From Sphyrna mokarran (taxonomy: Eukaryota), in NCBI GenBank assembly GCA_024679065.1, contig JAGIQG010000014.1, positions 30,690,001 to 30,754,000 on the forward strand: DNA of 64,000 nt, written 5' to 3'. This document shows, piece by piece, positions 6,531-30,600 of this stretch. The notes under the pieces were generated by a model. The model did no database searches. It had not been told where the DNA came from and saw only the letters and a list, made by a program, of their open reading frames with translations. A program made the position numbers and the translations under genes. The first letter of the stretch is position 1; every line of letters begins with the position of its first letter.

Positions 6531-7227
6531 ACCTCAGGGAACCTGAGTGCTCTCTCCATCCAGGTTCTCAAACATCATGACTTCTCTGTTGGCTTCTTTC
6601 ATGTTGACTTCTCTCCCACTCGGCACACTCTATACGTATAGTGGAAATTAGGAAGTGCAAGTTATATATAAAGTTCAAGGAAATCTGCATCTAATAAGTG
6701 TATGAGTGATAAACCTTTAGAAATTCCAGGATTGCATGCTAAATTCACAATTTCAAACAACCGTTTATTATTGTTTCAATATTCATTTGATGCCTGTTTT
6801 AATCCTTTGGGAAAAATAACCTTTCCATTTCTACAGTGTTGGTAATTTATATGTAATGGACCTGCCTCAGCACTCAGCGTTCCTGTTGCAGTTGATTCAC
6901 TGATGTCAAGTAGAGTGAATGAAAGAATTGAAGTGTCATTAACATGTCAATCAACTGCTCTTTGTGTACAGACACATCACTTCTAGAAAGTATCTCCTCC
7001 TCTTTGGGAGCATCTGAAAGATTTTGGAATGAGCCAGCTTTGGAATTACTCTTTTATTATTGCCTGAACATATGTAAGTGAATTGAAGGTTCCCTTGGAG
7101 TTTGGATTTCAAAGTCTTCGTAATATTTGTGAGAAATGATGTCATGCCCAATAATGAGGTTTGCACTGCAGGCACCATTGTTGTTTCCAGATTTTTTTTT
7201 TCTCTCCTGCAAATTAAAGTAACAGTG

Positions 7228-8151
7228 ATGGCAGTGCAGGTAGTACATTGCACCTCCTGCGGTATGTATGAGGTGAGGGACACCAGTAGTGTTCCTGCTG
7301 ATTATACCTGCAGGAAGTGTGCACATTTGCAGCTCCTTGAGGATCGTGTTAAGGAGCTGGAGCTGGAATTAGAGGAGCTCAGGGTAATTCGAGAGGTTGA
7401 GGAGGATATAGGCAGGAGTAACAAAGAGATTGTAACTCCTATAAGTGATAATTGGGTAACTATTAGGAGGAGGGGTAAGAAGCAATCGGGGAGACAATCC
7501 CCTGGGGCTGTTCCCCTCCAAAACAAATTTTCTGTCTTGGAGGCTACAGTTGAGGAAGAATCAACTGGAGCTGACCAAAGGGAGCAGGTCTCTGGGGGTG
7601 AGACTGCTGAGAATGCTCAGGTGGGTGGGGGGAATAAGAGATTAGGCCTAGTTATAGGAGACTCCATAGTTAGAGGGACAGATAGGAGGGTAAATAGTAA
7701 TAAACAGGACTCAGGGCTGGTGTGTTGCCTCCCAGGGGCTGGGGTCCAGGATGTTGCAGATCGGGTTTTTAGGATTCTTAAGGGTGAGGGGAGTCAGCCC
7801 CAAGTCATTGTTCATGTGGGGACACATGATGTAGGTAGGACAAGGGAAGGGGATATTAAACAGAAATTTATGGAGTTAGGGTGGAAGCTTAGGTCCATAA
7901 CAGGCAGAGTGGTTATCTCTGGACTCTTGCCTGTGCCAAGAGATAGTTTAGAGATGAACAGAGAAAGGGATAGTTTGAACTCATGGCTGCGTGGATGGTG
8001 CAGGAGGGAGGGGTTCAGGTTCCTTAACAATTGGGACTCATTCTGGGATAGGTGGGACCTCTTCAAGAGAGATGGTCTACACCTGAACCAGAGGGGGACT
8101 AATATCTTGGGGGGAAAATTTGCTAAGGCTATGATGGGGGCTTTAAACTGA
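7228..8151 (+). CDS. CR1 ORF1p: CxxC..CxxC zinc finger, leucine zipper, SGNH/GDSL esterase (307 aa)
   Basis: ATG 7228 MAVQVVHCTSC..CRKC, LQLLEDRVKELELELEEL, IGDS, CLPGA, HVGTHD, DGLHLN; open to TGA. Confidence 0.9.
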   Translation: MAVQVVHCTSCGMYEVRDTSSVPADYTCRKCAHLQLLEDRVKELELELEELRVIREVEEDIGRSNKEIVTPISDNWVTIRRRGKKQSGRQSPGAVPLQNKFSVLEATVEEESTGADQREQVSGGETAENAQVGGGNKRLGLVIGDSIVRGTDRRVNSNKQDSGLVCCLPGAGVQDVADRVFRILKGEGSQPQVIVHVGTHDVGRTREGDIKQKFMELGWKLRSITGRVVISGLLPVPRDSLEMNRERDSLNSWLRGWCRREGFRFLNNWDSFWDRWDLFKRDGLHLNQRGTNILGGKFAKAMMGALN

Positions 8152-8251
8152 TTCGGGGGGGGGTGGGATCCTAAGTAGTTGGGGTGCCGAGAGGGATGAG
8201 AGTAAGGGGGTTATAGAGGAGAGTTGTAAAACACAGCGGCGTACGGGTGGG

Positions 8252-9430
8252 GTGGGGCATGGTTTGAGATGCGTATACTTTAATGCAAGGAGTATTCGCA
8301 ATAAGGGGGAGGAACTTGCAGCTTGGACCAGTACCTGGAACTTCGATGTTGTGGCCATTTCAGAGACTTGGGTAGAGCAGGGACAGGAATGGATGTTGCA
8401 GGTTCCGGGGTACAAATGCTTTAGTCGGAGTAGAGAAGGGGGTAGAAGGGGGGGAGGAGTGGCGTTACTGGTCAAAGACTGTATCACGGTGATCGAAAAG
8501 AAGTTTGATGAGGACTTGTCTGTTGAGGTAGTATGGGCTGAGATTAGAAACAGGAGAGGAGAGGTCACCCTGTTGGGAGTCTTTTACAGACCTCCTAATA
8601 GTTCTAGAGAGGTTGAGGAAAGGATTGCGAAGTCAATTCTGATTAGGAGTGAAAGTAGTAGGGTAATTGTGATGGGGGACTTTAACTTTGCTAATATTGA
8701 TTGGAATAGCTATAGCTCTAGCTCGTTAGAGGGGTCAGTTTTCGTACAGAGTGTGCAGGAAGGTTTTTTGACTCAGTATGTAGATAGGCCAACTAGAGGT
8801 GAGGCTACATTGGATTTGGTGCTGGGCAATGAGCCAGACCAGGTGTTAGGCTTGGAAGTTAGTGAACATTTTGGTGATAGTGACCACAATTCGGTTACGT
8901 TCACCTTAGTGATGGATAGGGATAGGCATGAAGCTGGGGGCAGTAGTTATAGCTGGGGGAAGGGTAATTATGAGGCCATCAGGAGAGAATTAGGGTGCAT
9001 AGATTGGACTAGGAAACTACAGGGACTGGGAACATCTGGAATGTGGTGCTTATTCAAGGAGCAGCTGCTGCGAGTCCTTGATAAGTATGTCCCTGTCAGG
9101 CAGGGAGGAAATGGACGAGTAAGAGAGCCTTGGTGTACGAAAAGAGTTGATTTGCTGGTTAAGAAGAAAAAGGAGGCTTATGTCAGGATGAGGCTTGAAG
9201 GCTCAGGTAGTGCAATGGATAGCTATAGATTAGCTAGGAAGGAGGTAAAAAGTGAATTGAGGAGAGCTAAGAGGGGACACGAGAAGATGTTGGCTGATAG
9301 GATTAAGGAGAATCCTAAAGCTTTCTTTCGATATGTTAAGAATAGAAGATTGGTTAGGGCAAGATTAGGGCCAGTCATAGACAGCAGTGGAAGTTGTGCG
9401 TGGAGCCTGAAGAGATTGGTGAGGCACTGA
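8252..9430 (+). CDS. CR1 ORF2p N-part: AP endonuclease and linker (frame open from 8147; frameshift at ~9390)
   Basis: YFNARS, ISETW, YRPP, GDFN, LDLVL, SDH motifs. Confidence 0.88.
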   Translation: MGHGLRCVYFNARSIRNKGEELAAWTSTWNFDVVAISETWVEQGQEWMLQVPGYKCFSRSREGGRRGGGVALLVKDCITVIEKKFDEDLSVEVVWAEIRNRRGEVTLLGVFYRPPNSSREVEERIAKSILIRSESSRVIVMGDFNFANIDWNSYSSSSLEGSVFVQSVQEGFLTQYVDRPTRGEATLDLVLGNEPDQVLGLEVSEHFGDSDHNSVTFTLVMDRDRHEAGGSSYSWGKGNYEAIRRELGCIDWTRKLQGLGTSGMWCLFKEQLLRVLDKYVPVRQGGNGRVREPWCTKRVDLLVKKKKEAYVRMRLEGSGSAMDSYRLARKEVKSELRRAKRGHEKMLADRIKENPKAFFRYVKNRRLVRARLGPVIDSSGSCAWSLKRLVRH

Positions 9431-11031
9431 ATAAATATTTCTCTTCGGTATTCACGCAGAGTGCTGGAAATGTAGCTGTGGAGAGCACTGAGGTACAGGG
9501 TTGCAAATTGGGGAGTATTGTAGTAGATAGGGAGGATGTGTTAGAAATTCTCGAGGGTTTGAAGTTGGATAAGTCCCCTGGGCCGGACGGGATTTACCCT
9601 AGGATTCTCTGGGAGGCAAGAGAGGAGATTGCAGAGCCTCTGGCTCTGATCTTCAGGTCCTCGTTGGTTACGGGTGTGGTTCCGGAGGACTGGAGGATAG
9701 CGAATGTGGTCCCATTGTTTAAGAAGGGGAAGAGAGACCTTCCTGGGAATTATAGGCCAGTGAGTCTTACTTCTGTGGTGGGCAAGGTATTGGAGAGAAT
9801 TATTAGGGATAGGATTTATAGTTATTTAGAGAGAAATGAATTGATTGGGGATAGTCAGCATGGTTTTGTGAAGGGTAGGTCGTGCCTTACTAACCTCATT
9901 GAGTTTTTTGAAAAAGTGACCAAAGAGGTGGATGGGGGTAAGGCGGTTGATGTGGTATATATGGACTTTAGTAAGGCGTTTGATAAGGTGGCCCATGGAA
10001 GACTTCTGCAGAAAATGCAGATGTTTGGGATAGAGGGTGATTTAGCTAATTGGATTAGGAATTGGCTAGCAGATAGAAGACAGAGGGTGGTGGTTGATGG
10101 GAGATATTCATCGTGGAGTTCGGTGACAAGTGGTGTACCTCAGGGGTCTGTTTTGGGGCCCCTGCTGTTTGTAATTTTTATAAATGATCTGGATGAGGGT
10201 ATTGAGGGATGGATCAGTAAATTTGCAGATGATACTAAAGTTGGTGGTGTGGTAGATAGTGAAGAGGGGTGTTTTAGTTTACAGAGTGACTTGGACAAGT
10301 TGCAGAGCTGGGCCGAGAGGTGGCAAATGGAGTTTAATGTGGAAAAGTGTGAGGTAATGCACTTTGGCAGGAACAATAAATGTGTAGAGTATAGGGCTAA
10401 TGGTAGGGCTCTTAATAGTGTTGAGGAACAGAAGGATCTTGGTGTATGTGTCAATAGATCCCTGAAAGTAGGCAGTCAAGTGGATAAATTTGTTAAGAAG
10501 GCATATGGAGTCTTAGCTTTTATTGGTAGGGGGATTGAATTTCGGAGCCGCAACGTCATGTTGCAACTGTACAAAACTCTAGTGCGGCCGCACTTGGAGT
10601 ATTGTGTGCAGTTCTGGTCCCCACATTATAAGAAAGATGTGGAGGCATTGGAGAGGGTACAGAGGAGGTTTACCAGGATGTTGCCTGGTATGGAGGGCAG
10701 GTCCTATGAAGAGAGGTTGAAGGATTTGAGGTTGTTTCCGTTAGAAAGGAGGCGGCTAAGAGGGGATCTTATTGAAGCATATAAGATGATTAGAGGTTTA
10801 GATAGGGTGGACAGTGATAGCCTTTTTCCTAGGATGGAAAAAGCTAGCACGAGGGGACACAGCTTTAAATTAAGGGGTATGAGTTATAGGACGGATATCA
10901 GAGGTAGGTTCTTTACTCAAAGAGTGATTAGGGAGTGGAATGCCCTGCCTGCAGCTGTTGTAGATGCGCCAAGTTTGGTGGCGTTTAAGAGGTTAGTTGA
11001 TAAGTATATGGATGAGAAGGGAATGGTTTAG
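9394..11031 (+). CDS. CR1 ORF2p C-part: reverse transcriptase
   Basis: KSPGPDG, NYRPVSLTS, QHGF, DFSKAFDKV, GVPQGSVLGP, FADD, RPHLEYCVQFWSP; no internal stops. Confidence 0.92.
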   Translation: MCVEPEEIGEALNKYFSSVFTQSAGNVAVESTEVQGCKLGSIVVDREDVLEILEGLKLDKSPGPDGIYPRILWEAREEIAEPLALIFRSSLVTGVVPEDWRIANVVPLFKKGKRDLPGNYRPVSLTSVVGKVLERIIRDRIYSYLERNELIGDSQHGFVKGRSCLTNLIEFFEKVTKEVDGGKAVDVVYMDFSKAFDKVAHGRLLQKMQMFGIEGDLANWIRNWLADRRQRVVVDGRYSSWSSVTSGVPQGSVLGPLLFVIFINDLDEGIEGWISKFADDTKVGGVVDSEEGCFSLQSDLDKLQSWAERWQMEFNVEKCEVMHFGRNNKCVEYRANGRALNSVEEQKDLGVCVNRSLKVGSQVDKFVKKAYGVLAFIGRGIEFRSRNVMLQLYKTLVRPHLEYCVQFWSPHYKKDVEALERVQRRFTRMLPGMEGRSYEERLKDLRLFPLERRRLRGDLIEAYKMIRGLDRVDSDSLFPRMEKASTRGHSFKLRGMSYRTDIRGRFFTQRVIREWNALPAAVVDAPSLVAFKRLVDKYMDEKGMV

Positions 11032-11104
11032 TTAGGAGGGGCATTGCTTTTTATTTTGGTCGGCACAACATCGAAGGCCGAAGGGCCTGTTCTGTGCTAT
11101 ATTG

Positions 11105-11130
11105 TTCTATGTTCTATGTTCTATGTTCTA
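11105..11130 (+). repeat. CR1 tail repeat (TTCTATG)n
   Basis: About 3.5 copies of a 7-bp unit. Confidence 0.9.
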
Positions 11131-11874
11131 TACTTAATAAAAGAGAAAAAAATGCTCCATAACATTTCTGGTGGGAAAAAGTAATGTATGTCCTGATGTT
11201 TGCTTTCCCCAGTCTACCAAGATTACCTTCCAATCAATGTCTACATACAAGGAAACAATTAACTGTTGAATAACATTCTGTTGTCCAATCAGCTTCTATT
11301 TCAAAATATGCTAAGGTTTTAATCTCCCAGAACTTGATTTTGGGCACAGCATATTAAGCCTCTACCCTGTACCACATGGAGAATTATGGCACCATTACTC
11401 CTTCGTTACCAGTATATAGTGCTATTTCATGTGCTTCTTTATCAAGCTATCGATTTGTACCCTTGTTCTGTGATGAGAATAGAGTATAAGTACTTCAGCA
11501 CATTTATCTAGTTGGGTATTGTTTCGAGCACAGTAATGACCAACATGTTCTGCAATTTTTCAAATCTTCACTCTGCCAGTATCTTTTGAACTCTTCATCC
11601 TGAACAATTCAGCTATAGCTTCTTCAAATAGAATAGTGACAACATTTTTGCTGTCACTATTGCTTAAAATGTAATTAATTACAATTTCTATAACAAAACT
11701 GTCAATATTTGTTATAAGAATTTTTTCCACCATTAATTTTGCTACAAATGATATTTTAAAAACTAATTTGAAATTAAAACTATGAACATCAGAAATTAAA
11801 AACAGAATTTGCTGAAATACAAACCAGATAAAGAAAATATTACATATCTTACTTATTTTAGTAGTAGAATTCCA

Positions 11875-27669: not shown

Positions 27670-30600
27670 ACACCTTTTAAACAATAAACACTAATCTATC
27701 TCAACTACCCTTTTAGGCAATGAGTTCCAGTCTCCAAAAAGCTTCTGCATAAAAATATTCTTTTTGTTTTCCCTCTAATTTTTCTGCAGTCACTTTAAAT
27801 CTATGCCCTGTAGTCATTGCTAAAATAAATAGACCCTTTCTGTCATTCCTACTCAGGTCCTTCACAATTTTGTACATCTTAATCATATTTCCCTTCAGTC
27901 TCCTCTGCTTCAAGGAGAACAATCCCAGCACACCTAATTTTTCATCATAGCTGCAATTTTCCAGTCCTGGTGAAGTCTTTATAAATCTTCTCTGTATCCT
28001 CGCTATTGCAATTACTCATGTACACTCAGAACTCCTTGAATCTCCCCTTTCAATGTTTTCTACTACTATAACACTGATTTACTTTAAAGTCACCATTTTT
28101 AGTTCATTTTTGTTCAATTAATCTTCAACTTAGCAAAATTGGCCTTACAGCAATTTAAAACTTTATTCCCTCTTTATCTTTGTCTTTTGCCATAATTATT
28201 TGAAAAATAACTGAATTATAATCACTACCACCAAAATTCTCTCCCACTGACACTTCTTTCATCTGCCAGCTTCATTCCCTAGAACTAATTCCAGAATGCA
28301 TCTTAAGAATTCTGTTCCCTCCATTCCTTTCGTGCTAAAATTATTCTAGTTAATACCGGCATAGTTAAAATTCCCTGCTATTACTGCCCTATTGTGTTCA
28401 CACTTCTCAGAGAATTGCCTATATATTTTCTTTTCAGGTGCAAGACTGGGCAGAGAAGTAGCAGATAGACTTCAACCCAGATAAATGTGTAGTGGTACAT
28501 TTTGGCAGGTCAAATGAGATGAAGGAATACACTATTGAGGGTGAGACTCTTAGCAGTGTGGAAGATCAGAAGGATCTTGTGGTCCAGGTTCATAGGACTC
28601 TCAAATCGGCTTTGCAGGTAGAGGATGCAGTTAAGAAGGTGTATGGTGTACTGGCCTTCATCAATCGAGGAATTGAGTTTAGGAGTCAAGAGATAATGCT
28701 GCAGCTGTATAAGACTCTGGTCAGACCACACTTGGAGTACTGTGCTCAGTTCTGATTGCCTCATTACAGAAAGGAAATGGAAGCCTTTGAAAGGGTGCAG
28801 AGGAGATTTACAAGGATGCTACCTGGATTGGGTGGCATGCCTTATGAGGATAGGTTGAGAGAGCTCGGTCTTTTCTCCTTAGAGGGACGTAGGATGAGAG
28901 GGGACCTGATAGAGGTGTACAAGATGATGAAAGGTATCGATCAGAGGCTTTTCCCCAGGGCTGAAATAGCTGCCACAAGAGGACACAGGCTTAAGGTGCT
29001 GGGGAGCAGGTATAGAGCAGATGTCAGGGATAAGTTTTTCACTCAGAGGGTGGTGGGTGAGTGGAATCAGTTGCCATTGGTAGTGATGGAGGCAAATTTG
29101 TTAGGATTTTTTAAAAGACTTCTGGATGATTACATGGAACTTAATAGGATTGAGGGTTATAGGTAAGCCTAGTAGGCAGCGATATGATTGGTACAACTTG
29201 TGGGCCGAAGGGCCTGTTTGTGCTGTAGTTTTTCCATGATTCTATGATTCTAAATGTCTCTCTTGTTAGACTTGATGCATACTGGCCAAAAGATTCTCCT
29301 GAATGCACCTTAAGAATTCTGTTCCCTCCATTCCTTTCATGCTAAAATTATCCTAGTTTATACTGGCATAGTTAAAATTCCCTGCTATTACTGCCCTATT
29401 ATTTTCACACTTCTCAGAGAATTGCTTACATATTTTCTCTTCAGGCTCCTTTTGACTGTTTAGAGGTCTTTTGCATACACTTGTGACAGCCCCTTTTTTG
29501 TTCCTATGTTCAATCCATTCATTGTCAATTGATGATTTTAACATATCATCCCTCCTTACAGCTGTAATTGCTTCTCTAACCAAAATTGCCGCCCCCTCTC
29601 CCTTTTTATCTCTCGCTCTATCTCATCTGGAAACCCTGTAGTCAGGAATTTGAGCTGCCATTCTTGTCCTTTTTTCAGCTATGTTTCTGTAATATCTGTG
29701 ATATGATAATGCCACATTTCTGTCTGTGGCCTTAGCTTGTCTGCTTTATCTGCTATACTCCTTGCATTGAAGTATATACCTTTGAGCACTGTCAAATTCA
29801 CTTTTTTATTTTCTGTCTTTTGTTTCTTCTGTCTTTTAGATTCACTCATTGATTTTCTTTTTGCCTTCAATTACAACTTCTACTTCTGTCCCCCTTAAAT
29901 CTATCCTCAGTTTTCCATTATCCTGCTAAATCTGTTTAAATCCTCCCCAACAACATGTTGGTTCCAGCCGTATTGAGGAGCAAACTGTTCAGCTTGTCTA
30001 CATCATTTCTCCAGCCACATATTCATCATCTCTAACCTCTATTTCAGTTTTCAACAGTGCATGACATTGGTAATAACCCAGAGATTAGTATTAAACTGCA
30101 TTTTAATGTTTTACTTAACTCTGCAAAATCTGCTTCCAGGACCTCATCCTTTTCCTATCAATGTCGTTAGTCCAATGTGAGCAAAGACCTCTGGCTGTTC
30201 ACCCCACCACCTCTCTTCAGAATATCTTTAGCTGCTCTATGATATCCTTGAGTAAGGTCTATGCTTGCAGAAACGCTCCTCTAACTATGGAATCCCCCCA
30301 CCACTGTTCCTCTTGCACTCTTCTCCCTCTTCATCTACACAGCTGAGCCACCCGTAGTATCCCAAACTTGTCCCTTGTTGTACTCTCCTGAAGAATCGTC
30401 CAACATGGAAAATTGAATTGTAACTGAGACAGACTCAGATGATTCCTGCATTACTTACCTGGTCTTCCTAAACTTTCCGGTGGCAACGCATTCACTTCCT
30501 GCCTGCACACTCCTAATCTGCACCGTGACAATCTCTCAAAACATTTATCTATGTAGTCCTTAGTGGCGTGCAAGTGCAACGGTGACTATACCCCTGCTCG

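Follow-up and report, generated by a model that had tools for sequence, protein, structure and literature searches.

The window analyzed here is a 64,000-nucleotide (nt) stretch of the Sphyrna mokarran genome that contains, at positions 7192 to 11131 of its plus strand, a young copy of a CR1 LINE with a truncated 5′-untranslated region (UTR). By blastn, this copy is 98.9% identical over 3941 columns to the intact copy L303. On the same strand, ORF1 (7228 to 8151) encodes a 307-residue protein of the SGNH/GDSL esterase type (PF13472) that ends in ...GALN before a TGA stop codon, and ORF2 (8264 to 11031) encodes an AP endonuclease (APE) and a reverse transcriptase (RT) (PF03372, PF14529, and PF00078). 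Between them lies an ATG-less linker (8152 to 8263) that forms the start of ORF2 and whose −1 frame is open in copies with a run of 10 G residues (G10), and the 3′ tail consists of four 7-nt tandem repeats (11104 to 11131) without poly(A). The ORF1 profile found its best PDB match in the ORF1 esterase 4c1b (E value of 1.8e-40), and the closest named proteins come from sharks and rays. With its APE and RT ORF2, SGNH esterase ORF1, and tandem-repeat tail, the element falls into the CR1 group, a placement supported by ORF1 matches that are nearer to CR1-type proteins of turtles and birds than to proteins of the L2 type. The same architecture of two ORFs, an SGNH ORF1, an ORF2 with APE and RT, and a tandem-repeat tail is described for esterase-type vertebrate CR1 LINEs in passages of PMC13343379 and PMC3905857.

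The first-pass annotation of this DNA had proposed that the ORF1/ORF2 junction carries a −1 ribosomal frameshift signal, and the letters that it reported were found in place. ORF1 ends in GCT TTA AAC TGA (8140 to 8151), with the heptamer U_UUA_AAC (8142 to 8148) in the X_XXY_YYZ register of ORF1 and the stop codon TGA (8149 to 8151; TAG or TAA in other lineages) directly 3′ of it. TGATTC (8149 to 8154) is followed by the G-tract (8155 to 8167), which consists of nine G residues (G9; 8155 to 8163), a T, and GGG (8165 to 8167) and has a family mode of 10 nt. As claimed, the −1 frame of the window copy meets a stop at 8172, and ORF2 lacks an early start codon, the first in-frame ATG (8393) being preceded by endonuclease motifs I (from 8264) and II. 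The suggestion that one more G would repair the junction was also borne out, in that copies with an additional G (e.g., L024 to L030) read FKL... and are open into the endonuclease. As assembled, ORF2 of the window copy stands in the +1 frame relative to ORF1 and is open from 8147 to 9430; the copy is a broken example of the signal, one G short of the −1 layout. Furthermore, it carries a private 1-nt deletion near 9389, the missing base being present in 52 of 55 covering copies, and because of this second private frameshift the copy is dead whatever the length of its G run. It should be noted that a 10-mer such as TTTAAACTRR is expected by chance at a mean of 1.14 per window and was observed once; since chance alone provides about one, it is the position and conservation of the site, and not its rarity, that carry the argument.

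We therefore turned from the single copy to its relatives. A pattern allowing tracts of 5 to 15 nt matched 1702 copies of the window copy's family, and among the first 100 by position the tract measured 10 nt in 48 and 9 nt in 26, while ORF2 stood in −1 in 53, in +1 in 33, and in 0 phase in 14. The 10-nt tract, which sets the −1 phase, was also modal genome-wide (782 copies versus 394 with 9 nt, counted with whole-genome patterns slightly shorter than those of the 1702-copy search). The modal copy of the family, G10 with ORF2 in −1, has the phase that the first-pass annotation expected of a consensus. Copy L303 has both ORFs intact and is open for 963 codons; overall, an intact ORF2 was present in 6 of 40 full-length copies, 2 of them in −1 and 4 in +1. 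Illumina reads from a second sample labelled as the same species, mapped onto the G9 window copy, contained one additional G in 248 reads at a depth of 882, two in 85, three in 25, four in 18, and one fewer in 25, in a read table that does not give the share of G9 itself. Since the spread in G-run length is seen in reads of another sample, it is not merely an assembly artifact. Family B (610 copies) has a mode of 8 nt and the +1 phase (49 versus 32 in −1 among the first 100); on a 9-nt copy of this family, 70 reads were one base shorter at a depth of 221 to 246, with reference bias and with many reads clipped at the run. Three contig sets from other organisms contained no sequence across this junction.

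Sorting into subfamilies covered 220 position-ordered loci, which gave 184 distinct junctions (11 loci unparsed, the remainder duplicates). Ordered by divergence, the share of copies in −1 was 19/25 (1.2%), 31/46 (1.5%), 8/24 (2.8%), and 18/61 (2.9%) in the subfamilies with pure G runs, and it was 14/18 (4.7%) and 7/10 (13.5%) in older relatives whose tracts are interrupted by A. Phase by subfamily age indicates that the ancestral spacing is −1 and that pure G runs drift with age, mostly to shorter lengths. In subfamily A2 the ancestral spacing was retained in only 2 of 24 copies, and the −1 layout is absent from most copies of both A2 and B. Simple decay from the younger families would leave more in-phase copies than A2 and B contain, and the source elements of these two subfamilies may have been out of phase, having moved in trans or relied on a different mode of expression. 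Old decayed families showed no clear phase (−1 in 10 of 22 and, in a separate count, in 9 of 19 well-anchored cases), and a tree of family A, in which 39 of 57 sequences were retained, was poorly resolved, with the 9-nt copies scattered. As a separate observation, the young copies carry many small indels (1.6 to 1.9 per kb, including the G-tract and the window copy's own deletion; L290 to L309, L031 to L060, and L210 to L239), caused by either error-prone copying or assembly error, and ORF2 was broken in 34 of the 40 full-length copies.

The heptamer itself was followed across a much wider range of elements. The search for ORF1 homologues returned 134 proteins, of which 115 have a DGLH-like motif and 105 end 22 to 36 residues after it; 96 of these 105 have a C-terminal Leu-Asn (LN), and their hosts include sharks, rays, an eel, frogs, turtles, squamates, and birds. 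At the DNA level, the only anchors of the comparison were the upstream motif and a stop codon 26 codons downstream of it; of the 90 distinct junctions obtained, 75 carry TTTAAAC and 6 carry GTTAAAC. They formed 15 clusters, or 14 after removal of one bacterial nonhomologue, with a median identity of 52% in codons 1 to 23; 13 of the 14 have members from searches without the heptamer in the query, as assigned by hand. T occupied the wobble position ahead of the Leu codon in 14 of 14 clusters, across different amino acids, the terminal Leu codon was TTA in 13 of 13, and the Asn codon was AAC in 13 of 14. At equally conserved Leu and Gly positions further upstream, 2 to 5 different codons occur in the same clusters. 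From codon usage, the heptamer combination is expected at 0.008 to 0.02 per lineage, a value to be read with the clusters related by descent and not as 14 independent trials. Residues unable to end in T occupy position −3 in 1 of 29 clusters, versus 12 at −4 and 10 at −5, a contrast of little weight because −6, −7, and −9 are equally low. The stop codon after the heptamer varies (TAG in 7 clusters, TAA in 4, and TGA in 3). The only expanded heptamer variant seen, G_UUA_AAC, marks a young subfamily of 210 copies (among them L210 to L239), in which the tract measures 10 nt in 79 of the first 100 copies by hand count.

Seven of 35 metagenome loci span both the junction and the endonuclease, most others ending before ORF2, and in 6 of these 7 the FKL stretch is open in −1. 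Among the ORF2 proteins matched, only two naturally fused records and P0038 extend through FKL, and none of 25 further matches does. No ORF1 relatives were found in viral contigs, and the only matches in prokaryote genomes were four weak ones to bacterial esterases. Two ORF1 homologues labelled as SGNH hydrolases of Pseudomonas aeruginosa and Klebsiella pneumoniae (P0010 and P0120) are of the vertebrate CR1 type and are probably contaminants. On these sequence comparisons, we conclude that the CR1 ORF1/ORF2 junction carries a real, deeply conserved signal of the recoding type.

An old, decayed CR1 copy on the minus strand of the window, cited by the first-pass annotation as a second case of the same register, is of more limited help. 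Translation set the register at 29934 to 29940 and placed the heptamer in that of ORF1, at a C terminus reading ...VGEDLN. However, no stop follows the heptamer and the ORF2 motif lies in 0 phase, so that this copy supports the heptamer and not the phase.

The best explanation, to which we assign a probability of roughly 70%, is that programmed −1 ribosomal frameshifting yields the ATG-less ORF2 of CR1 as part of an ORF1-ORF2 fusion. It is favored because the modal copy has G10 and the −1 phase and because the heptamer is kept at synonymous sites across distant CR1 lineages. Such a fusion would not be specific to sharks, given the heptamer's conservation across these lineages. In the window copy's family, the X_XXY_YYZ heptamer is in register and synonymously conserved, and no usable AUG precedes the catalytic domain; the modal copy and the older families with interrupted tracts, unlike the window copy, have the downstream ORF in −1 and open through the heptamer. 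According to this explanation, most ribosomes would stop at the end of ORF1 and release the esterase-type ORF1 protein, while a minority would slip by one base through tandem slippage on U_UUA_AAC and continue through the short linker into the endonuclease and RT, giving a fusion product of about 1270 residues. The pause would probably be due to the stop codon next to the heptamer and to the conserved G-tract (+11 to +19), and not to a stem or pseudoknot. In the young families the tract has become a pure and unstable G run, and many genomic copies, the window copy among them, show the resulting variation in length and presumably lost their phase by G-run slippage during or after insertion.

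The alternative of termination-reinitiation at the ORF1 stop must be weighed with care, since a UAAUG overlap also predicts the −1 phase; phase alone cannot separate the two, while synonymous-site constraint on a canonical heptamer can. Reinitiation would use AUG where one overlaps the stop and a non-AUG codon elsewhere, with the heptamer and G-tract serving as a reinitiation signal, and no fusion would be formed. One family of the genome (20 of 100 rows, counted by hand) and L088 do have a UAAUG stop-start, and ATG stands one codon later in metagenome loci L062, L066, and L071. The same pentamer is used by SART1, a non-LTR element whose ORF2 lies in −1 phase at the ORF1 stop; passages of PMC3708506 that describe it report no conserved slippery heptamer, and an AUG overlapping the stop in this manner is absent from the window copy's family. 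Across lineages, only 1 of 14 clusters has ATG as the overlap codon; others have GGT, GAT, AAT, AGG, or GTT, and near-cognate ATT or GTG occupies the position in several. The first Met of ORF2 is residue 84 in L303 and 176 in L270, with the endonuclease motif at 41 and 40, respectively; some other lineages have an AUG before the catalytic domain (L062 and L068). Reinitiation would let the +1-phase copies with intact ORF2 (L270, L300, and L307) act in cis, but it does not require TTA over other Leu codons, and the near-invariant heptamer fits the X_XXY_YYZ pattern in register, as only 24 of 16384 heptamers do. We consider reinitiation unlikely. An overlapping UAAUG makes it conceivable in some families, and the two routes could coexist in different CR1 families. 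In the families of L329, L331, L336, L339, and L088, an overlapping UAAUG stop-start comes after the heptamer, so that a single junction encodes both routes. As a general explanation, initiation at a CUG that overlaps TGA was discarded, TGA being present in just 3 of 14 clusters.

A second alternative, which we regard as improbable, is that the heptamer is a by-product of an ORF1 protein that needs a Leu-Asn end, ORF2 being reached by splicing, internal initiation, readthrough, or polymerase slippage. The distance from DGLH to the stop is indeed constant, at 26 residues in most homologues, but the codon choice is fixed beyond residue identity, and the solved zebrafish L2 esterase (4c1b) folds without LN; the L2-type esterases among the matches likewise have C termini that lack it. 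AG or GT dinucleotides lie near the stop in some lineages, but neither occurs at one place common to all. Readthrough needs the 0 phase, which is a minority state (14 of 100), and the stop codon varies. Polymerase slippage in the G run would take place downstream of the ORF1 stop and therefore cannot join the ORFs. Frameshifting on the heptamer is thus preferred over both alternatives.

Counted from the end of the heptamer, G is conserved at +11 to +15 (11 to 13 of 14 clusters) and at +18 to +19 (12 to 13 of 14). The 6-nt spacer and long G run that had been proposed as parts of the signal proved to be derived in young families and not general, the conserved tract beginning at +11. No shared downstream stem was found by pseudoknot-free folding of 75 nt from +6 in 21 representatives (z scores of −1.6 to +1.2). 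A two-tier quadruplex was part of the predicted minimum for 9 of the 21, so that a G-quadruplex is predicted in some lineages only; a G4Hunter-type score over +4 to +28 was 1.0 to 1.8 in 21 of 21, against an element median of 0.48. Judged by its conserved position, the tract may stimulate slippage.

Similar signals are known from other systems. Passages of PMC3835772 give UUUAAAC as the ORF1a/1b heptamer of coronaviruses and most arteriviruses and GUUAAAC as that of equine arteritis virus, the two heptamers found here; a pseudoknot lies 3 to 7 nt downstream of the nidovirus sites, whereas in CR1 no conserved stem is predicted and an immediate stop is followed by the G-tract. In G-quadruplex reporters described in part of PMC3919603, UUUAAAC with a G-rich element worked best at a spacer of 6 to 8 nt and reached up to about 7% frameshifting. 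Those quadruplexes were engineered with three tiers, whereas the CR1 tract (G5, 1 to 2 nt, G2 to 4) allows at most two and starts at +11. Among LINEs, the Dictyostelium elements TRE5-A and TRE3-A are APE-type and are stated in a passage of PMC5911963 to need a −1 frameshift for ORF2, but they belong to another clade and another host and have an unrelated ORF1. For Paramecium LINEs, a +1 shift, reinitiation, or readthrough is suggested in a section of PMC5405496, and the production of ORF2 from bicistronic LINE RNA is called unclear in a passage of PMC3708506. The term "frameshift" was not found for the junction in the available portions of PMC13343379, PMC2734521, PMC3905857, PMC4120745, PMC3708506, and PMC4176376, those of PMC13343379 and PMC3905857 do not address the mode of ORF2 translation, and "CR1" is not mentioned in those of the frameshifting review PMC5009743; the corresponding portions of PMC7175516 and PMC5006619 added nothing on the junction. 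A full-text literature search found no description of a frameshift signal in CR1; Kajikawa 1997, Wicker 2005, and Haas 1997 were outside its scope, and they or Repbase notes may already propose one.

CR1 is named the dominant retrotransposon group in most vertebrates in part of PMC13343379. A conserved frameshift, if true, would fix the ratio of ORF1 to ORF2, would make the active CR1 enzyme a fusion, would explain intact CR1 elements that are annotated as frameshifted or ATG-less, and would constitute a natural frameshift signal without a pseudoknot. Going further, we tentatively suggest, at somewhat less than even odds, that vertebrate CR1 from sharks to birds has kept a gag-pol-like fusion RT for >400 million years. 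Its −1 frameshift would depend on the stop and a position-fixed G-tract, acting as a two-tier quadruplex or protein-binding site, with no pseudoknot; through the fusion, the enzyme would stay attached to the esterase ORF1 particle, and instability of the G run would silence copies soon after insertion. The Sphyrna mokarran genome supplies natural variants, with two heptamers, several tract lengths, and UAAUG families.

Two minor observations concern other parts of these elements. The end of the 5′ UTR just upstream of the ORF1 ATG resembles a 3′ splice site, with a branch-point-like motif, a long pyrimidine tract, and AG, both in the window (7192 to 7230) and in L291, L293, L296, L301, L303, L304, and L307, and the window copy starts at the pyrimidine tract; judging from these motifs, the 5′ UTR may contain an intron. 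In the old CR1 copy, an internal stretch (28540 to 29240, minus-strand view) resembles the 3′ part of another LINE in reversed orientation.
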